A stretch of DNA of 64,000 bases from Escherichia phage EPIMRB01. Position numbers and translations under genes: made by a program. Shown one piece after another: positions 2,448 to 36,259 of this stretch (positions within the stretch are counted from its first letter, which is position 1; the number at the start of each line of letters is the position of its first letter). Where the stretch lies: sequence record PQ657784, one strand, 5' to 3'. The notes under the pieces were generated by a model. It had not been told where the DNA came from. It saw nothing but the letters and a program-made list of their open reading frames with translations, and searched no databases.

Positions 2448-4264
2448 TACTGGCTCATCCATTCTTTACGAAGGTCAGCATTATCTCCCATGAGCATTTC
2501 AAAAAGCTCTTTCCAGTTCTCAGGAAGTTTAACAACATCATATACTGGGTTTTGAATCATCTCACGATATTCAGATTTTTCCAAAGAGCCAAGTCCCTTA
2601 ATATAACGGATGCTATGTTTAGGTAGAGCATCTTTGGCACTCTCATATTCAGCGACTGTATAAAACCATTCTTGTTTTTTACCGACCTGAGCGATGATTA
2701 CAGGAGTTTTGACAAAGCGAATTCTTCCTTGTTCAAACAGTTCTGGCCAATTACTAAAAAATCCGAGCAGAGAAGGATAAATGCTTCCTAAACCATCATG
2801 GTCAGCATCGGTCATAATAGCAATATTATGATAATTCAAGTTTTCAGCTTTTTCACCAAGAACTAATCCAGTGATTGCGCAAATATCAAATAGTTCTTTG
2901 TTTTTAAGCATATCAGCATATGACATACCCCAACTGTTGAGAACTTTACCACGCAATGGATAACCACCATGAAGTTCTTTATCACGAACATCAATAAGAT
3001 ATCCGATAGCAGAATCACCCTCGGTTAAGAACAATGTAGTATCAGCATCTTTACCACAAAGATTCGCTTTAATATGTTTATGAACCTTAGCTTTAGAAGC
3101 CTTTTTAGCTGCTTTAGTTTCTGCTGCTTTTTCTGCTGCCAATTTACGAGCTAATGCTGCTTCAATAATTGGCATCAAAATTGCTTCATTATTTAGAATA
3201 GCACGTGAAATCTTTTTAGCATCAAGCTGAATATGACTACGGATTTCACCAAATGGAGAAGTCAAACGCTCTTTAGTTTGAGAATCAAATCGCATGTTTT
3301 TCATATCACGGACAAACATAACGATAGTCAAACATTCTTTAACACGTGCTTTAGTTACATCAATTTTGAATTTACGTTTGATTTGTGGAATAAGGTCTTC
3401 ACAAATATCATCCATAACACAATCAATGTGATGACCACCATTCTTAGTGTGAATGTTATTCACATAAGTTAATTGACGAAAACCATCCGGTGAACGACCA
3501 ACCGCAATAGAACAATTTTCTTGTTCTTGAACAATAGCATGTTCATCATACTGCCGTGCATATTTCTTAAAATTGCCCTGAACCTTTTTACCATTAAAGG
3601 TAAATTGAATATCAGGATAAACAACAGCAAGTGTCTGGAGACGATCTAGTGTAATGTCAAGATAAACTTGGGACAGCTCATTAGTTTCAAATGACATAAA
3701 ATCTGGAATGAAAGTAACACGAGTTCCTTTCCATTTTCCAGGAATAGTTTCCCAGGATTTATTTTCCATGCCATTTGAACAACGAACTACAATATTATTT
3801 TGACCATCGCCAGTTTCACCGACAAACATCACAGAAAAAATGTTAGTTAAACTAGAACCAACACCATTCATACCACCGGTGACACGTTCTTTATCATCAC
3901 CAAAGTTACCACCTGCTTTTGGAATAGTCCATGCAGCAACAGGACCAGGAATTTCTTCACCGGTAGGTGTTTTAACCATTGCCTGTGGAATACCGCGACC
4001 GTTATCTTCAACTGTTACCTGATTATTTTTAATGGTAACATTAATTTTATTTGCGAATTTAAACTTAGTACGAATACCTTCATCGACTGAGTTATCGATA
4101 ATTTCATCAATAAGCTTAACAAGACCAGGTACATACTGAACACTTTCCCATTTACCAAACAGAAAGCGCTCATGCATTTCATTAGCAGAAGAGCCAATGT
4201 ACATGCCACTACGCTTTTTGATATGTTCAATATCGCTCAGAATTTTAATTTCATTCTTAATCAT
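2447..4264 (-). CDS. 39: DNA topoisomerase II large subunit gp39, uninterrupted (gp39+gp60 equivalent)
   Basis: 605 aa from the first ATG; GHKL ATPase N-terminus and Toprim-like DxD region; single continuous frame. Confidence 0.9.
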   Translation of the reverse strand: MIKNEIKILSDIEHIKKRSGMYIGSSANEMHERFLFGKWESVQYVPGLVKLIDEIIDNSVDEGIRTKFKFANKINVTIKNNQVTVEDNGRGIPQAMVKTPTGEEIPGPVAAWTIPKAGGNFGDDKERVTGGMNGVGSSLTNIFSVMFVGETGDGQNNIVVRCSNGMENKSWETIPGKWKGTRVTFIPDFMSFETNELSQVYLDITLDRLQTLAVVYPDIQFTFNGKKVQGNFKKYARQYDEHAIVQEQENCSIAVGRSPDGFRQLTYVNNIHTKNGGHHIDCVMDDICEDLIPQIKRKFKIDVTKARVKECLTIVMFVRDMKNMRFDSQTKERLTSPFGEIRSHIQLDAKKISRAILNNEAILMPIIEAALARKLAAEKAAETKAAKKASKAKVHKHIKANLCGKDADTTLFLTEGDSAIGYLIDVRDKELHGGYPLRGKVLNSWGMSYADMLKNKELFDICAITGLVLGEKAENLNYHNIAIMTDADHDGLGSIYPSLLGFFSNWPELFEQGRIRFVKTPVIIAQVGKKQEWFYTVAEYESAKDALPKHSIRYIKGLGSLEKSEYREMIQNPVYDVVKLPENWKELFEMLMGDNADLRKEWMSQ

Positions 4265-15414: not shown

Positions 15415-15444
15415 GTAATTCTCCTTTTATTTAAATTACATGAC

Positions 15445-15452
15445 TATTTATA
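15445..15452 (-). promoter_or_regulatory. late promoter TATAAATA upstream of soc
   Basis: exact TATAAATA on minus strand 31 nt before soc ATG. Confidence 0.6.
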
Positions 15453-15482
15453 ATAAATTCTCGCGGCTTTTAAGACGAGCTG

Positions 15483-16001
15483 TTAATAACCTCGGTCCTG
15501 ACGAGCAAAGTTCTCGGCATTTTTCAGATAATAAAGTTTAAAGATTTCTTCTGCTGTAAGACCAAGACCCTGGAACATATTCAGAACGAAATGAAGAATA
15601 TCAATCATTTCAAATTTAATTTCTAACTGGTCTTGTGGAGACAAATCAGTAATCAGAGTTTCACGACGTTCACCATGCTGCGACTTCCAAGGTTTCCATA
15701 CAGCAGATGCGTCTTTTTCACCATTACTCATACCACCAAGAGAAGTCAGAAGTTCACGGAATTCATCGTCAATATAATCTTTCTGATTACGCAACCAATC
15801 AACAACTTCACCGGCAGTAGCCAAGTCATCAGGATGACGATTATATTCAGGTTTATCTTTAGCTAAACGAATCTGCAGAGATTTCTGCATGTCAAGCATT
15901 ACCTGCAGCGGGTCTTTTTCATCACCGAGAATATCCCAATATTCATTTTGAGCTTTATCAGCGCCTTCAATCAGTTGTGAACATTCGTTAAAGTAAGCCA
16001 T
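15483..16001 (-). CDS. 56: dCTP pyrophosphatase gp56 (MazG-like)
   Basis: 172 aa from ATG at 16001 with AAAGGA SD; size matches T4 gp56; track ORF is N-terminally extended. Confidence 0.8.
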   Translation of the reverse strand: MAYFNECSQLIEGADKAQNEYWDILGDEKDPLQVMLDMQKSLQIRLAKDKPEYNRHPDDLATAGEVVDWLRNQKDYIDDEFRELLTSLGGMSNGEKDASAVWKPWKSQHGERRETLITDLSPQDQLEIKFEMIDILHFVLNMFQGLGLTAEEIFKLYYLKNAENFARQDRGY

Positions 16002-16074
16002 TATTTTTCCTTTCAATTCATGGGTTAGTAGATTAATTATACAATAAATATATAAAGCAATAAGGAGGATATAT

Positions 16075-16275
16075 ATGGTACAAAAATTAATGGCACTTGT
16101 TAATGCCATAAAAGGTAATAAAAAACGTATAGCTTTTACTATTTCTGCTATGGTAGGAATTTTACTCTGGAACTTTATTTTATCACCAATTGCAATTGCG
16201 CATGGTGTTAATATTCCAGTAGTTACTCTTGATACATTCGTAGATCTAGCATTTGCTTTAGTTGGGTTAATTTAA
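16075..16275 (+). CDS. hypothetical small hydrophobic protein
   Basis: 66-aa plus-strand ORF with AAGGAGG SD 6 nt before ATG; sits in the 56-61 intergenic gap; stop overlaps gene 61 stop convergently. Confidence 0.4.
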   Translation: MVQKLMALVNAIKGNKKRIAFTISAMVGILLWNFILSPIAIAHGVNIPVVTLDTFVDLAFALVGLI

Positions 16276-17300
16276 ATCTTGGCATATTTAGATAGCCGCA
16301 TTTTAGCCATCAACCCCTGGGCAATATTATTTTTCATATATTCCATAATTTGTTCAGGGGTTGCACCTTCCTTTCTAATCATATCATTGACATCTTTTGA
16401 TTTCCAGGGAGATTTATCCCAAAACATAACCCTTTCTCCTGCATCAACTAATTTAGTCATTCGTTTGATAGTGTCAGGGTGACGAGGTTCATTATCTAAA
16501 ACCCACACTCGTCTATCTTTAAATGGAACAACTTCTAGGTCTAATTGACCACCCGTAATAGCTATACCATTTTCAATAAAAAGTGAATCTATAGGTCCTT
16601 CTAGAACATATACATCACCATCTTTAACTCGTTCGACTCCATAGATTTTTGTTGCTTCAGGATAAGCTTTGATGGTGATATATTTTTGGGGAGCATCTTT
16701 CTTTAATGCACGTCCTTGAAAAGACTCAGCTTTTCCATTAGCATTATAAATTGGAATAACAAGACGAGGCTCAGGTATTTCCTTTTTGTATGTTCCCGGT
16801 GCTATGCTATTAACTAATTTAGGCCATTCAGTTGTAAACCAAAGATATTTCCATTTATCCTTTGGAATACAACGAGCTTTTACATATTTTATAATTGCAT
16901 GGTCTTCCGCCAGTTTATCTAATCTAACGCATGACGGAAGAGATTTAATTATTTTCTTCTCAGGTTGTTTAGAAAGTTCTTTAGGTTTTTCTACTGGACG
17001 ACTTTTACCTTTTTCTTTTCTTATTTCAAAGATATACTCACGATATAAATCAGGTTCAAACTCCTTTAAATATATTCCGATTGGTGCATGATAGTTACAG
17101 TTATAACAATGAATATTTCCTTCATTATTATCACCATAATACCATCCACGAGCTTTATTCTGGTCGGTTTTTGAATCTCCACAAACAGGGCATCTAAACC
17201 GTAATTTAAAAGTTGAACTATTATTTACTTGTGTGAATTTAGGTAAATGAGCTAATGCACGATACGCAAACTCATTATCAATCCAAGGTATTGATGACAT
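16272..17300 (-). CDS. 61: DNA primase gp61
   Basis: 342 aa as T4 gp61; N-terminal Cys4 zinc ribbon (CPVCGD...CYNC) and Toprim region. Confidence 0.95.
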   Translation of the reverse strand: MSSIPWIDNEFAYRALAHLPKFTQVNNSSTFKLRFRCPVCGDSKTDQNKARGWYYGDNNEGNIHCYNCNYHAPIGIYLKEFEPDLYREYIFEIRKEKGKSRPVEKPKELSKQPEKKIIKSLPSCVRLDKLAEDHAIIKYVKARCIPKDKWKYLWFTTEWPKLVNSIAPGTYKKEIPEPRLVIPIYNANGKAESFQGRALKKDAPQKYITIKAYPEATKIYGVERVKDGDVYVLEGPIDSLFIENGIAITGGQLDLEVVPFKDRRVWVLDNEPRHPDTIKRMTKLVDAGERVMFWDKSPWKSKDVNDMIRKEGATPEQIMEYMKNNIAQGLMAKMRLSKYAKI

Positions 17301-17302
17301 TT

Positions 17303-17467
17303 TTACTCTTCTTTTTCTTTAGATTCCTCTTTTTTCTTTTTAGGAATCTGTTCAGGACCTTTATTTACTACAGCACCTGATGTTGTTCCAGTAGAGATAT
17401 TTTCAGGATTACCACCTGAATCTCCAGCAACCATATCTTCTTTAATAAATTCTTTATATGTTTTCAT
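17303..17467 (-). CDS. hypothetical small protein with internal-protein-like N-terminus
   Basis: 54-aa ORF read by hand, MKTYKEFIKEDMVAGDSGG...KKKKEESKEKEE; ATGA overlap with 61.1-like stop. Confidence 0.4.
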   Translation of the reverse strand: MKTYKEFIKEDMVAGDSGGNPENISTGTTSGAVVNKGPEQIPKKKKEESKEKEE

Positions 17468-17513
17468 ATTAACCTCTATTCATAAAAGCATTAAAAATTT
17501 GGTCATCAATAGA
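17465..17513. repeat. 49-bp direct repeat, copy 1 (3' end of 61.1-like gene)
   Basis: 48/49 identical to 17823-17871; covers last 14 codons, stop, SD and ATG of next gene. Confidence 0.8.
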
Positions 17514-17825
17514 TGGCACAGTAATATTTTCTGCATCATTTAGCAAATCATTAATTTCATCGGATAGCATAACACATGTACCTTTATTTCCTGTAATTGT
17601 TACTGCGCAATTACGAACGTTTTCTTTATTAAATTTTAGGTTAATATTTTCGTAATGAAAATCCTTTAATGCTGAATATATTTTTAAAATAAAATTGTCT
17701 TTTACTACAATAAACCCAACCTCACTATTAAAACGTGGTTCATGGAAACTGTAATAAACCTTTTCATCTATAAAATCGTATGAAATTTTTTCCATTTTTA
17801 AATATGAAAATTCAGAACTATACAT
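17469..17825 (-). CDS. hypothetical protein (61.1 position)
   Basis: 118-aa ORF; C-terminal 14 aa identical to next ORF. Confidence 0.5.
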   Translation of the reverse strand: MYSSEFSYLKMEKISYDFIDEKVYYSFHEPRFNSEVGFIVVKDNFILKIYSALKDFHYENINLKFNKENVRNCAVTITGNKGTCVMLSDEINDLLNDAENITVPSIDDQIFNAFMNRG

Positions 17826-17871
17826 ATTAACCTTTATTCATAAAAGCATTAAAAATTTGGTCATCAATAGA
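17823..17871. repeat. 49-bp direct repeat, copy 2 (3' end of 61.2-like gene)
   Basis: see copy 1. Confidence 0.8.
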
Positions 17872-18453
17872 AACATTTACTTTAGACTGTTTTTCTGATG
17901 GTAATTCATATCCACATATTACAATTTTGTGATCAATATCAAAATACACAGAAGCAATATGATTAATGATGTTTTCAGTAAAGTCTAAATCAACATCAAT
18001 ATCTTTTTGACCACAGCCCAAAGGATAAATAATGCGAGTAATTCGATTATCTTTAACAAATATTCCACCGACATACTCTGTGCTGCGTTTAAAGTCTACA
18101 CGCCGACGAAATGAAAAATATTCAGGCTCTCTATGAGCTCGGCTCATAGGACACAACGAGTAACTAGAATAAGAGATGTCAAATCCTACACCTTCGATAT
18201 GAGCCAAAGTGTTATGATTAAACCAATTATAATCGTACGCCAAATCCATTAGATTATAATATGTAAAAGGCACCGGATTAACATCATTAGTCACAAGCAT
18301 GTAATTAGCAACTGCTATAATTTCATTGTTTTTAACGAATACAAACCGTGATTGATGCGAATGACCTGGACCCGCGTTTTCACGATTAATGATATAACAC
18401 TGGGCACCTTTATATTTGTATGTATCTCTGCACTTGTGCATTTGATAGAGCAT
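17827..18453 (-). CDS. hypothetical protein (61.2 position)
   Basis: 208-aa ORF; ends ...SIDDQIFNAFMNKG. Confidence 0.5.
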   Translation of the reverse strand: MLYQMHKCRDTYKYKGAQCYIINRENAGPGHSHQSRFVFVKNNEIIAVANYMLVTNDVNPVPFTYYNLMDLAYDYNWFNHNTLAHIEGVGFDISYSSYSLCPMSRAHREPEYFSFRRRVDFKRSTEYVGGIFVKDNRITRIIYPLGCGQKDIDVDLDFTENIINHIASVYFDIDHKIVICGYELPSEKQSKVNVSIDDQIFNAFMNKG

Positions 18454-25134: not shown

Positions 25135-27831
25135 TCAGCCAAACAGGAAGTCTAACGAAGCTTTTTCTTCATAGTCCATACCAGCCGATTCACACATGCC
25201 TGCAAGCGGTTTAACAAACGATTTTTGGAACAAAGTTGAGTAGTCAATCCAAGACAGTACGTCAGAACGAATTTCTTTTGGAAGTTCTGTACCCGATGGC
25301 CAAGCAATGCATTTGTCACCAAATGGATTTCCTTCACGCAATGGAAGAACCATTACTTTATTTCCATCCAAAATTGGAGCTACACCCAGACCACTAACAG
25401 CTCGACGATAAGTTAGCACACCACGAATATGGAACGGACATTTAAATCCTGGCCAACCTTTATCATCATATTTCGCTATATCGTTCGCAGTTTTTACTTC
25501 AGCAATAACTTTATAGTCAAGTTGACGATATTCTTTCTCGAAGTTCTTGTAATATTCTTGGACAGACTCTTCACCTTCCTGAAGAATACGACGAATACTT
25601 TCTTCGAGAGCTTCTTGCACTGCTTTTGGTGTTGAACTCTGCTGAGTTTCCATACCCATGATTTTTAGATGCGGTTCAGCAAATCGTTTATCTTCCATAT
25701 CATAAACGTTCAGAGCATAACGCTTTTTCGCTTTCCAAAATCCACCAACGCCCTTTGAACCAAGTGGAGGGCAAGAAATAGCTTCACGGTCCATATGCAT
25801 CAGATGCTCGCGGTTATTCATATAATCACATAACTCACGATATGCAACATCAATCATAGGTTCCATCTTTTTCTTACCGAACTGATTCATGAATTCAACT
25901 AAATCGTTCTGCTCTTTGAATCGGTCAAGACCAACTTTTTCAATAACTTTATCTACACAAACATATACCGAATCAGTATCACCTGCTGCAATGAAATCTT
26001 CATCGTTAGTTCCGCATACTTTATTCAGATATTCATTAATTTTACGAGCAATCCACTGAATACCAACTTGGCCGAAAATTGTGATAGCAGTAGCATTTCG
26101 CAAATCATAGTAACGGAAATGAATATTACCAAGAGCACCATAAAGACTGTTAATAAGAATTTTACGGTTCAGTTGATTTGTGTTAGCAAGTGTAGCTGCT
26201 TTTTCACATTCTTCAATCAGACTATTGAGAACGGATTCGGTGTAATTCGATAGTTCATTTAAGAAATCATCACTGAACTTAACATATCGTTCAACTTCAG
26301 GTTTAGTTGAACAAGACCCTGCGCCTTTCATAATAATCTTTTTAATAGCTTCGGCATTCATTTCTTCAGCGAACATTTTCTTTTTCCAGTCTTTACGCTG
26401 GAAAAATACTTTAGCGATTTCCTTTGGAATGATACCTTCTTGATGCTTATCATACATCCATCCATTCGGAGAACAAGAATATTCATCACTCGGTTTAGGA
26501 GCTGTTCCTGCGATATATTCATGAATTGGATGAACTTTAAACTGACCACGAATAGTCTCAGGACTAATGTTAACCTGACGAATAATGCTCGGATACAGAG
26601 ACGTCAAGTCAAAACTCATAATATATCGACGAGCAATTGGTTTAGGTTCAAACACAAATGCACCCGGAAAACTCTGTTTAACGTGCGAACCTTGTTGAGG
26701 AATAACCTTATGTTCACCTTTCAATGAGTTAAAAATAATAGCATCCCAGGTTTTAATAGGACTCATTACACCAGAAAAAGGCATTTTAGCGTAATAAGAC
26801 ATACTTAAAACTAGATCGATAAACCCGCGAATTTTATCAATTGCTTGAACTGATTCTACGTCAATGATGTTATAACTAATGTATCGTTGATGATTAGTCT
26901 CACGAAGTTTATTAATAGGACCGTCGTATGGTAATTTACCTTTTTTGGTTTCATGTTGAGCAACTGATTCCAAAGAGAATGACGGCAAATTAGTAAAAGC
27001 AAATTTCTTGTACAAATCTAAATAATCAAGAATAGATACACCATCAATAGAATAAATTTCTTTGCTGCCGTACATGTTTTGAATTAGTTTAGATTTTACT
27101 CGACCAATTGGAGAGAAGCGTTTCATACTACGTTCACCGAGAACCATTTTAACGCGATTCATGATATACGGAACGTCAAATCCCTCAATATTCCAACCAG
27201 TAAAAATAGCAGGTCGTTTCTGTTCCCAGAGATTGATATATTCCATGAGCATATCACGCTCATTATCGAATGGCATATAAATTACTCGGTCAAGAATTTC
27301 TTGAGGAACTTCATCACCACCTTCACAGTCAAGCTTAGCAGCTAACTTTGCATCCCATTTTGATACTGAACCATACATTGAATTCAAAAGGTCGAAAACA
27401 TAAAAACGATCATCAATTGAATCGTAATGAGTGATAGCATCAATTTCATATTCAGCTTTCATTGGGTCAGGAAATTTATCACCAGTAACCTCAATGTCAC
27501 AGTTAGCTACACGAACAAATTTTCGGTCATAAACAATTTCTGAACCATATGTATCACTGATATAAGCGAGTTTAAAATCGTTCATACCGAGAGCTTCGAG
27601 ACCGATGTCTTCCATTCGTTTCATCCAATCTCGAGCATCTTTCATTGATGGAAATTTTTGAGGAGCGCAATTTTTACCATAAATGTCTTTGTACTTTGAC
27701 TCTTCCTTACAATGCCTAAACATAGTCGGAAGATATTCTACTTCACGAGTACGTTCCTTTCCGTTTTCATCAATATAACGTTCAACAATGTTATTTCCGA
27801 CTGTTTCAATAGAGATATAAAATTCTTTCAT
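25135..27831 (-). CDS. 43: DNA polymerase gp43 (family B)
   Basis: 898 aa as T4 gp43; exonuclease and polymerase motifs; operator hairpin upstream. Confidence 0.97.
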   Translation of the reverse strand: MKEFYISIETVGNNIVERYIDENGKERTREVEYLPTMFRHCKEESKYKDIYGKNCAPQKFPSMKDARDWMKRMEDIGLEALGMNDFKLAYISDTYGSEIVYDRKFVRVANCDIEVTGDKFPDPMKAEYEIDAITHYDSIDDRFYVFDLLNSMYGSVSKWDAKLAAKLDCEGGDEVPQEILDRVIYMPFDNERDMLMEYINLWEQKRPAIFTGWNIEGFDVPYIMNRVKMVLGERSMKRFSPIGRVKSKLIQNMYGSKEIYSIDGVSILDYLDLYKKFAFTNLPSFSLESVAQHETKKGKLPYDGPINKLRETNHQRYISYNIIDVESVQAIDKIRGFIDLVLSMSYYAKMPFSGVMSPIKTWDAIIFNSLKGEHKVIPQQGSHVKQSFPGAFVFEPKPIARRYIMSFDLTSLYPSIIRQVNISPETIRGQFKVHPIHEYIAGTAPKPSDEYSCSPNGWMYDKHQEGIIPKEIAKVFFQRKDWKKKMFAEEMNAEAIKKIIMKGAGSCSTKPEVERYVKFSDDFLNELSNYTESVLNSLIEECEKAATLANTNQLNRKILINSLYGALGNIHFRYYDLRNATAITIFGQVGIQWIARKINEYLNKVCGTNDEDFIAAGDTDSVYVCVDKVIEKVGLDRFKEQNDLVEFMNQFGKKKMEPMIDVAYRELCDYMNNREHLMHMDREAISCPPLGSKGVGGFWKAKKRYALNVYDMEDKRFAEPHLKIMGMETQQSSTPKAVQEALEESIRRILQEGEESVQEYYKNFEKEYRQLDYKVIAEVKTANDIAKYDDKGWPGFKCPFHIRGVLTYRRAVSGLGVAPILDGNKVMVLPLREGNPFGDKCIAWPSGTELPKEIRSDVLSWIDYSTLFQKSFVKPLAGMCESAGMDYEEKASLDFLFG

Positions 27832-34815: not shown

Positions 34816-36016
34816 ATTTTGTAATAATGTCAAACTGTTCTTTAAAGCAGAAGCTTGAATCTTGATGCTGATACAAAAATTCATATGCTTTTTCTCGCTC
34901 ACGGTCATAAAGAGTTCGATCAGATGACAGTTCTTTAATACGTTCAAATGTTGATTCCATGTCATTTTCATCAAACCAAATGATACCGCTATCATGCGAG
35001 GTCAAAGGAGTATTATCAACACGGAATTTTAAATTTTCGCCAGTAGATTTCCAAAATACCGGAATTGTTCCACATGCACCAAGCTCGAGATGAGTATATT
35101 CTAAAGAACGTTGTAGATATTTTTTGTCCAACTTACTCAGCTGATAACCAAATCCGGATTTACTCATACGTTCAAGCATTTCGCTATTTACATAACGGTC
35201 AAGAATTTGCGTTGGCAAATTAGGAGCAATTTTAATTTGGTCTACTTGATGAAGACGATAATACTCGTATGGAATTCCTTTTTCTTTAATAGGAATGAAC
35301 GCTGGAGAACGTTCCAGACCTTCCATAATAGTACTTAGTCCTGCAGGTTTAAGATGTTTTTCATGAAAATCAAACATCTGATAAAAACCTTTCCATGTAG
35401 TCGTACGACCAATCCAACGGTTGATATTCATGTTAATTTCAGAAACATCTTTCCAGTAGGTTGACCGAACCTTCGCAATATCCATAGGAGGCTGAAAGTT
35501 ATATACTGTCGGTGCTTCTTCAATATCATCAAACAGAGAAACTGTTTCAGGATACCATTCTTTCATCAGAACTTTATTAAAATCACCATTATCAGAATGG
35601 CTAAAAATAACATCAGCTCGACGAACAGTTTCTTCTAATCCCAAATTTCGGCGCAAAGAAAGAGAAGAATGGTCATGTTGATAAACTACAACACGAACAG
35701 AAGGTTTAATGTTATCAATAATTTTTTTATAGTTATTAATAGTGTCTTCTTCAACCGAAGTAGCAGGAACTGAATTGATAATTAGAATATCACAATCATT
35801 TACCAGCTTAAGTGTTTTATCATATTCTTTTGCCAATAAAACCGGAATTGAAAATGATTTATAATCATGCGCGCAATTACGAGTAAATGATTTATCTTTA
35901 GCATAAACCAAAGTTACTTCATGACCATTTTTAATAAACCAATCACGTTGCTCGAGTGAGAATTTTGTTACACCACAACCTTCAAGACCTCGAGCCATAA
36001 AAATACATACTTTCAT
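34814..36016 (-). CDS. a-gt: alpha-glucosyltransferase
   Basis: 400 aa as T4 alpha-gt; position after gene 47. Confidence 0.85.
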   Translation of the reverse strand: MKVCIFMARGLEGCGVTKFSLEQRDWFIKNGHEVTLVYAKDKSFTRNCAHDYKSFSIPVLLAKEYDKTLKLVNDCDILIINSVPATSVEEDTINNYKKIIDNIKPSVRVVVYQHDHSSLSLRRNLGLEETVRRADVIFSHSDNGDFNKVLMKEWYPETVSLFDDIEEAPTVYNFQPPMDIAKVRSTYWKDVSEINMNINRWIGRTTTWKGFYQMFDFHEKHLKPAGLSTIMEGLERSPAFIPIKEKGIPYEYYRLHQVDQIKIAPNLPTQILDRYVNSEMLERMSKSGFGYQLSKLDKKYLQRSLEYTHLELGACGTIPVFWKSTGENLKFRVDNTPLTSHDSGIIWFDENDMESTFERIKELSSDRTLYDREREKAYEFLYQHQDSSFCFKEQFDIITK

Positions 36017-36067
36017 TTAATATCCTCTTTGTTTTGGTTTATTTTACCAAAAATTTATAAAGCAATA

Positions 36068-36085
36068 TAGGAGCCGAAGCTCCTA
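36068..36085 (-). terminator. UUCG hairpin upstream of alpha-gt
   Basis: UAGGAGC-UUCG-GCUCCUA. Confidence 0.4.
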
Positions 36086-36259
36086 TCCACATAATACGCC
36101 ATACAGAGGCTCATTAGAACTTTTAAATTTTATGCGCTTATATTTTATAGTTCCTTCTGCTTTAGCTTTATCATGAGACTCTTTAAAGCGTCTCATCATT
36201 TCCTCTTTAGAGGAACGAATTTTATTATAATCTATTTCAGAAGTCTGGGTGTTCATCTT

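Follow-up and report, generated by a model that had tools for sequence, protein, structure and literature searches.

Phage T4 encodes a number of short proteins of the inner membrane or periplasm, among them Imm, Sp, RI, RIII, holin T and the spanin PseT.3/PseT.2. Three of these (RI, T and PseT.3) have an N-in, single-pass or signal-anchored arrangement. Bacteria have micro-proteins of a comparable kind, such as MgrB and AcrZ, which possess a single transmembrane (TM) helix, bind a larger membrane protein and carry their conserved residues near the membrane–periplasm interface.

The early and middle transcripts of T4 all run counterclockwise and its late transcripts may have either polarity; in a list of 50 T4 late promoters, 32 contain a perfect TATAAATA and the commonest variant, found at nine sites, has A at position −13 (PMC2988020). 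The T at −13 is itself poorly conserved across T4-like phages (PMC1524935). For middle promoters, the MotA consensus is (a/t)(a/t)(a/t)TGCTTtA, positioned 12±1 bp from TAtaaT (PMC2988021). In the T4 genome (NC_000866) dam is located between genes 56 and 61, at 16846-17625 on the minus strand, as was correctly stated in a preliminary description of the locus considered here.

In this work we analyze the region between genes 56 and 61 of Escherichia phage EPIMRB01 (PQ657784) within a window of 64,000 nucleotides, by which we mean the whole stretch of DNA that was examined. The genome of phage AUBRB02 (OY979771), re-permuted to the rIIA start, matches this window at 100% across all 64,000 bases. 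Taking the evidence as a whole, a small plus-strand open reading frame (ORF) in this region is probably best explained as a conserved gene for a late, small inner-membrane protein that is independent of dam. Its predicted product resembles the small T4 envelope proteins in its short length and membrane location. However, it has no sequence or profile similarity to them, and imm, sp, rI, rIII and t all lie elsewhere in the AUBRB02 genome. Moreover, Imm and Sp are early proteins, whereas the strand of the small ORF indicates that it can only be late. The likeness to MgrB and AcrZ, which are similar in size and also have one TM helix, is a functional analogy only: there is no homology, and the small ORF is encoded by a phage and predicted to be expressed late.

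Layout and annotation history of the locus

The gap between gene 56 (dCTPase/dUTPase; 15483..16001, minus strand) and gene 61 (DNA primase; 16272..17300, minus strand) runs from 16002 to 16271 and measures 270 bp, in agreement with the approximate figure given in the preliminary description. The 66-aa ORF reported there is confirmed at 16075..16275 on the plus strand, with an ATG start and, 6 nt 5′ of it, the Shine–Dalgarno (SD) sequence AAGGAGG (16062..16068, plus strand). The ORF is convergent with its right neighbor, gene 61, and the stop codons of the two share 4 nt. Only one minus-strand ORF touches the gap, a 208-aa frame (15483..16109) that extends gene 56 in frame from an ATG at 16109. 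We rejected this frame as a longer version of gene 56, as T4 gp56 and all annotations begin at the internal ATG at 16001; the earlier statement that the gap is free of minus-strand ORFs holds good, with nothing more than this spurious extension reaching in. In the Prodigal annotation of AUBRB02 the small ORF (146832-147032) is the sole plus-strand coding sequence in the stretch equivalent to the window, which supports the earlier view that it is the only convincing plus-strand gene of the window.

T4 itself carries a counterpart of 66 aa at NC_000866 17738-17938 (plus strand), within the unannotated 309-bp gap between dam and gene 61. This counterpart is 98.5% identical to the window ORF, with two substitutions, and resembles it in its AAGGAGG SD, its AAGGAGGATATATATG start region and its 4-nt overlap with gene 61. 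The two differ in their upstream neighbor, which is dam in T4 and gene 56 in the window. The small ORF is not annotated in the T4 records NC_000866, MT984581 and K03113, and the exact T4 protein is without an NCBI accession. The genomes of RB32, RB51, RB68, wV7, AR1 and hundreds of other Tequatrovirus phages do list the ORF, placing a "hypothetical protein" between genes 56 and 61, under the name RB32ORF030w in RB32 and RB51. RB32ORF030w and the orthologues grouped in PHROG 2024 represent the same gene, sharing position, strand, SD and the stop overlap with gene 61. An identical protein is found in RB68, wV7 and others, and the exact window protein is recorded from 154 contigs. The T6 RefSeq record labels its version a "putative head morphogenesis protein", a label that we rejected, the notes in that record being unrelated PHASTER-style transfers.

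The gene is already known, as annotations from the RB32 genome onward include it as a hypothetical protein, and the presence or absence of dam is an ordinary T-even polymorphism. Therefore, the locus does not hold a new kind of element. What the comparison does bring out is that the curated T4 annotation misses a gene that is conserved in the subfamily, is under selection and is equipped with expression signals.

Expression signals on the two strands

A putative T4-type late promoter, AATAAATA, lies at 16043..16050 on the plus strand, 24 nt 5′ of the ATG, and represents the A(−13) variant of TATAAATA. Late transcripts are predicted to start near 16056, so that the leader would measure about 19 nt. 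Against the promoter, an eight-base A/T motif is not rare at 35% GC, and the genome has 16 copies of TATAAATA on one strand and 14 on the other, about the number expected by chance from composition. As sites of this type are near chance frequency, the case for a promoter depends on the recurrence of the element in different lineages, a lone site being unconvincing. The sequence (N)ATAAATA is present 16-33 nt 5′ of the ATG in all eight lineages examined, and takes the form of a perfect TATAAATA 5′ of the ORF in Q7622 and R3_1. In T4, a late-promoter-like element, GATAAATA, stands 5′ of the ORF in flanking DNA that is unrelated on account of the dam cassette. When the upstream 70 nt were shuffled, the motif fell within the 16-33 nt zone by chance in 0.5-5% of cases per lineage.

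None of the early and middle genes of the window shares the strand of the ORF. Given this orientation, and the single polarity of early and middle transcripts, the gene can only be late. We propose, from the sequence, that it would be transcribed only late, by gp55/gp33/gp45-RNA polymerase acting at AATAAATA. A sequence scan found no sigma-70-like promoter 5′ of the ORF on the plus strand.

On the minus strand, the gap contains an element at 16036..16062 that matches the consensus for a MotA-dependent middle promoter and is assigned to gene 56 on this basis. Its parts are a MotA box, TATTGCTTTA (16062 to 16053), an 11-nt spacer and a −10 element, TATAAT (16041 to 16036), and the annotations of SA20RB and fPS-65 likewise mark this element as a middle promoter. 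The putative plus-strand late promoter is nested in the spacer of this middle promoter, and the MotA box abuts the SD. Such nesting is specific to genomes that lack dam, the two promoters being 0.9 kb apart in T4. The equivalent gene 56 middle transcript of T4 primes oriA, according to a feature note in NC_000866. Furthermore, a scan identified a terminator-like hairpin, ATGGCATTAACAAGTGCCAT with TAATTTTTGT, at 16080..16109 on the minus strand, inside codons 6-12 of the small ORF. This hairpin forms in both the window and T4 sequences but in none of the other genera, being confined to Tequatrovirus; the SA20RB and fPS-65 annotations call it a terminator. We consider it a candidate terminator for gene 61 transcripts. 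If these assignments are correct, transcription from the 72 bp that separate the two start codons would go leftward during the middle period and switch to rightward during the late one.

The situation at the 3′ end of the ORF varies between lineages. Strong hairpins immediately follow the stop codon in PKO111 and TH40, whereas Tequatrovirus genomes have no canonical terminator 3′ of the ORF, where a long imperfect hairpin is followed by a U-rich run. In the absence of a strong terminator, late transcripts of Tequatrovirus may therefore read antisense into gene 61. This invites an interpretation in which the main function of the locus is exerted by RNA, with late transcription running antisense into gene 61 and occluding the middle promoter of gene 56/oriA, and with the peptide secondary. 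The 4-nt overlap of the convergent genes, the weak termination in Tequatrovirus, the position of the late promoter inside the middle-promoter spacer and the use of the gene 56 middle transcript as the oriA primer in T4 (NC_000866 note) are all compatible with this interpretation. However, neither of its physical requirements is conserved: the strong post-stop hairpins of PKO111 and TH40 would prevent read-through, and in T4 the 899-bp dam cassette separates the two promoters. In addition, the amino-acid sequence of the small ORF is under purifying selection. We consider it improbable that RNA-level effects are the main function, and give equally little weight to their proposed outcome, a late shut-off of primase and origin-primer synthesis.

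The predicted protein

The earlier description of the product as hydrophobic is borne out by its Kyte–Doolittle profile, which in a 19-residue window peaks at 2.02 over residues 23-41. An AF2 model built with a 25-sequence alignment comprises helices at residues 2-13, 16-42 and 52-63, with a mean pLDDT of 75. Across the 25 members, the charge of the N-terminal segment ranges from −1 to +5 and is net positive in 23, and the C-terminal charge ranges from 0 to −2. Because the N-terminal charge is mostly positive and the C-terminal charge neutral to −2, the product is predicted to be a single-pass inner-membrane protein with an N-in/C-out topology. Composition and the AF2 model together suggest that the N-terminus would form a short, cationic amphipathic helix in the cytoplasm, followed by a TM helix at about residues 19-42 and an acidic or neutral periplasmic tail of roughly 24 residues. 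In Tequatrovirus the last 20 residues are hydrophobic (1.86), more so than in the other genera, and this hydrophobic C-terminus could cross the membrane as a second TM span, in which case the topology would be different.

Four residues, W32, N33, P38 and G44, do not vary among 25 diverse members of the family, and conservation reaches at least 90% at A40 and P48. The resulting family motif, W-N-x4-P-x5-G-x3-P, is found within and after the TM helix and is present in the window protein. In the model, the conserved WN...P...(H/Q)G...P...(D/E) residues would occupy the last, periplasmic part of the helix and the positions immediately after it. As the conserved positions fall in the outer half of the TM helix and in the loop that follows, W32-N33...P38...G44...P48 most likely forms a protein–protein contact site, as judged from the model. 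The protein has no match in Pfam or NCBIfam, PDB sequences searched with the profile yielded nothing beyond TM-helix matches without significance (E of at least 0.07), and a Foldseek search of BFVD with the AF2 model recovered no structures other than its own orthologues.

A few database records identify the protein as a holin; UniProt calls the OE5505 orthologue "Holin", and the KP1079 record has "putative holin". An assignment as a holin or pinholin would suit a small, hydrophobic and probably late-expressed protein. However, these database labels are automatic, and no holin family in Pfam or NCBIfam is matched at E≤10. Nor does the protein have the charged, hydrophilic C-terminal tail with which holins typically end; its hydrophobic C-terminus reads ...DLAFALVGLI, with a net charge of −2, and its charged segment is N-terminal. 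Likewise, the gene does not adjoin the endolysin gene e or the holin gene t, which lie at 26627-27121 and 121613-122269 in AUBRB02, with the ORF at 146832-147032. Mutants of T4 in t fail to lyse, so that T has no substitute holin, and this too counts against the assignment. A holin role for the small protein is unlikely, and the holin or pinholin reading offered by these records has a very low probability in our estimation.

Conservation and selection

The window protein belongs to PHROG 2024, a family without an assigned function, matching it with E=1.5e-31 over residues 2-66 against positions 1-65 of the 65-position profile. Searches by tblastn returned 692 records with the window protein as query and 841 with a Gaprivervirus query. 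The orthologues span seven genera, namely Tequatrovirus, Mosigvirus, Gaprivervirus, Dhakavirus, Jiaodavirus, Kanagawavirus and Marfavirus, together with one uncultured relative, and protein identity across the seven genera ranges from 22 to 97%. In every locus with readable neighbors the ORF stands opposite the early genes and is convergent with the primase gene, at its 3′ end. Neighbors were read in the window, AUBRB02, T4, T6, JK42, phiC120, PKO111, Q7622, R3_1 and the uncultured L017. This set does not include TH40, whose record is unannotated. A GGAG(G) sequence is found 5-8 nt 5′ of the ATG in T4, JK42, phiC120, TH40, PKO111, Q7622, R3_1 and L017. The Dhakavirus JS98 has the ORF as well, though unannotated.

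An exhaustive HMM profile search of 1.84 billion representatives recovered 16 clusters at 50% identity, none of them with a known function. Fourteen match along their length and have 57-70 aa; the two outlying clusters consist of one truncated 45-aa member and one weak match (E 2.5e-4) in a 1099-aa protein. The family profile detects no paralogue in this genome, and scans of IMG/VR with the single distant proteins P0127 and P0125 gave no match.

Across genera, the DNA of the ORF is saturated at synonymous sites, and frame, length, SD and motif are all retained. In informative pairs, dN/dS estimated by the Nei–Gojobori method is about 0.15-0.3, with values of 0.15 for the window and T4, 0.16 for JK42 and phiC120, 0.15 for Q7622 and R3_1, and 0.22 for the window and JK42. 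On these sequence comparisons we judge the ORF to be a genuine, conserved Tevenvirinae gene, its coding nature established short of direct peptide detection, and find that purifying selection acts on the amino-acid sequence of the small protein. The literature searched contains no transcript, ribosome-profiling, proteomic or genetic data on the ORF from any phage. In the T6 record, a 2-nt deletion takes out the ATG of the ORF; if this loss is real, T6 at least can do without the gene.

The same comparisons bear on the suggestion that the gap is purely regulatory, made up of a gene 61 terminator, the middle promoter and leader of gene 56 and an oriA equivalent, and that the ORF is an accidental open frame that owes its persistence to the conservation of these elements. 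Such a gap would account for the minus-strand hairpin and T-run inside the ORF, for a perfect MotA-type promoter that overlaps the SD and promoter region, and for a curated T4 reference annotation with no gene between dam and 61. However, the hairpin is confined to Tequatrovirus and the protein is kept in genera without it, while the regulatory elements cover just the first 35 nt of the 201-nt ORF. Moreover, the frame, the length of 57-70 aa, the SD and the WN..P..G..P motif outlast synonymous saturation, and dN/dS stands at 0.15-0.3. A purely regulatory gap is thus highly improbable, and the ORF is better regarded as the conserved coding gene described above.

Possible roles of the protein

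We can only speculate on what the protein does. One tentative suggestion is that it serves as an accessory, probably dispensable envelope micro-protein that acts late, through helix–helix contact with a membrane partner of phage or host origin. It could in this way tune the timing of lysis, lysis inhibition or membrane integrity. To our knowledge, decades of hunts for T4 rapid-lysis (r) mutants have produced no locus between dam and 61, and a major role in lysis is disfavored for this reason. The lack of an r locus here, taken together with the T6 record without an ATG, likewise argues against any major or essential role.

A more ambitious proposal is that the gene adds a new inner-membrane part to the late envelope program and that in phages without dam its nested promoter region acts as a compact bidirectional switch, helping to silence origin-primer transcription late in infection. 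Under the first half of this proposal, the protein might act on targets such as holin T, RI, the spanin or membrane-bound head assembly. We regard the combined proposal as doubtful. A gene of 66 codons offers a cheap and concrete target for cataloguing the late membrane functions of T4.

Relationship to dam and the variable slot beside gene 56

The preliminary description suggested that this phage is without dam at the 56-61 site, which is correct; nor is dam present elsewhere in the window or in the identical AUBRB02 genome. A tblastn search with T4 Dam gave best E values of 0.022 against the window and 0.058 against the full AUBRB02 genome, with no Dam homolog in either, and no real ORF of the window or of the AUBRB02 genome has a DPPY-type motif. 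The search of the rest of the genome that had been called for was thereby made by way of AUBRB02, given its 100% identity, and yielded no Dam homolog.

The difference from T4 can be placed precisely. Pairwise blastn aligns window 15915-16041 with positions 2700-2826 of the T4 locus and window 16062-16336 with positions 3726-4000, leaving a 20-bp breakpoint at 16042..16061, on neither strand in particular, where T4 has an 899-bp dam cassette (T4 16826-17724) in its place. This insert consists of dam and about 100 bp upstream of it. The Dam cassette of T4 and T2 thus occupies the same genomic slot and is lacking in this phage. DNA of the T4 dam type is present in 184 phage records, at one copy each. 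The contiguous, dam-less arrangement of gene 56, the ORF and gene 61 is seen in 322 of 502 Tequatrovirus records, or about two thirds, making the absence of dam the majority state at this site in Tequatrovirus records. T6 is also dam-less at the 56-61 site, as are the four other genera whose annotated 56-61 region was examined.

When T4, T2 and T6 are set beside this phage, the comparison proposed earlier gives a divided answer: T6 lacks dam at the site just as this phage does, whereas T4 and T2 hold both dam and the small ORF. The claim that an opposite-strand gene is carried instead of dam must therefore be corrected, as T4 has the same ORF beside dam and the indel lies outside the ORF. Although dam is missing here and the ORF occupies the same intergenic slot, the reading of the ORF as a lineage-specific replacement for dam has next to no probability and is already disproved by the sequence of T4. 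Dam and the ORF coexist in T4 and T2, the indel breakpoints at 16042-16061 fall outside the ORF, and the ORF is found in genera that have never been observed to carry dam there.

The ORF is thus unconnected with dam, and the slot between gene 56 and the ORF is a variable cargo site. We rejected the 250-aa slot ORF of Marfavirus R3_1 as a Dam protein, its only match being a weak one of the LprI-like type. Marking the junction from gene 56 to the ORF as a cargo slot draws together what different lineages carry there, whether dam, a homing-endonuclease-like gene or other ORFs. The slot is empty in the Mosigvirus phages JK42 and phiC120, contains a 75-aa ORF in Kanagawavirus Q7622 and LprI-like and MazG-like ORFs in R3_1, encodes a 495-aa GIY-YIG protein in Jiaodavirus PKO111, and in fPS-65 holds dam together with a 186-aa ORF.

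Results and Discussion

The small ORF between genes 56 and 61, a plus-strand gene for a predicted 66-aa membrane protein (16075-16275), shares its DNA with a predicted signal of the opposite strand. Within its codons 6-12 lies a terminator-like hairpin with a T-run on the minus, early strand (16080-16109), which is probably the terminator of gene 61. The hairpin is found in Tequatrovirus, both in the window and in T4, and is absent from Mosig-, Gapriver-, Jiaoda-, Kanagawa- and Marfavirus. In Tequatrovirus, therefore, the same DNA would serve as protein-coding sequence and as an opposite-strand RNA signal.

Two predicted promoters overlap just upstream. The MotA-type middle promoter of gene 56 (16036-16062, minus strand) has an 11-nt spacer that encloses AATAAATA, a putative late-promoter element on the plus strand (16043-16050). 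In T4, the transcript from the gene 56 MotA-type middle promoter primes oriA. Given this nested arrangement, an occupied late promoter might occlude the gene 56 middle promoter in phages lacking dam.

The small ORF is left unannotated in the curated references of T4 (NC_000866, 17626-17934) and JS98 (NC_010105, 15379-15534), whereas it is called in most of their automatically annotated relatives. The T6 copy (locus L006, NC_054907, about 2488-2516) has lost 2 nt between the Shine-Dalgarno sequence and codon 2, and with them the ATG, leaving an in-frame ATT; RefSeq starts this CDS at Met6. The deletion could be a sequencing error, could mean that a rare start codon is in use, or could reflect gene decay.

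The space that separates the small ORF from gene 56, which holds dam in T4, carries cargo that differs by lineage and resembles a hot spot of repeated insertion. In the Jiaodavirus PKO111 (locus L007, 422-1909) it is filled by a protein of 495 aa whose GIY-YIG domain is LEM-3-like, and in the Marfavirus R3_1 (locus L010, 876-1972) by ORFs that are weakly LprI-like and MazG-like. The interval between soc and gene 56 is a second presence/absence slot directly adjoining this one: it spans only 68 bp in the window (15415-15482), and is occupied in T4 by the homing endonuclease gene segF and in T6 and SA20RB by two small ORFs.

In AUBRB02 (OY979771), a phage identical to the whole window that stands in for the complete genome, trinucleotide counts predict 570 copies of GATC where 197 are present (O/E 0.35), making it the most depleted 4-bp palindrome, with TCGA next lowest (O/E 0.68); for the window alone, base composition predicts 199 copies and the sequence has 67. 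This phage, which lacks dam, thus has few Dam target sites. The AUBRB02 record overlaps itself by 127 bp at its two ends, both of which match window 35988-36114 at 100% identity, and the end-to-end junction lies within the window; the public record is a circular assembly made linear with a short end duplicated.

On the minus strand, the 208-aa orthologue of 61.2 (17827-18453) adjoins a 118-aa ORF (17469-17825), and the two share the C-terminal motif SIDDQIFNAFMN(R/K)G. The shorter ORF has the appearance of an additional, partial 61.2 paralogue; in T4 this position is occupied by the 208-aa gene alone.
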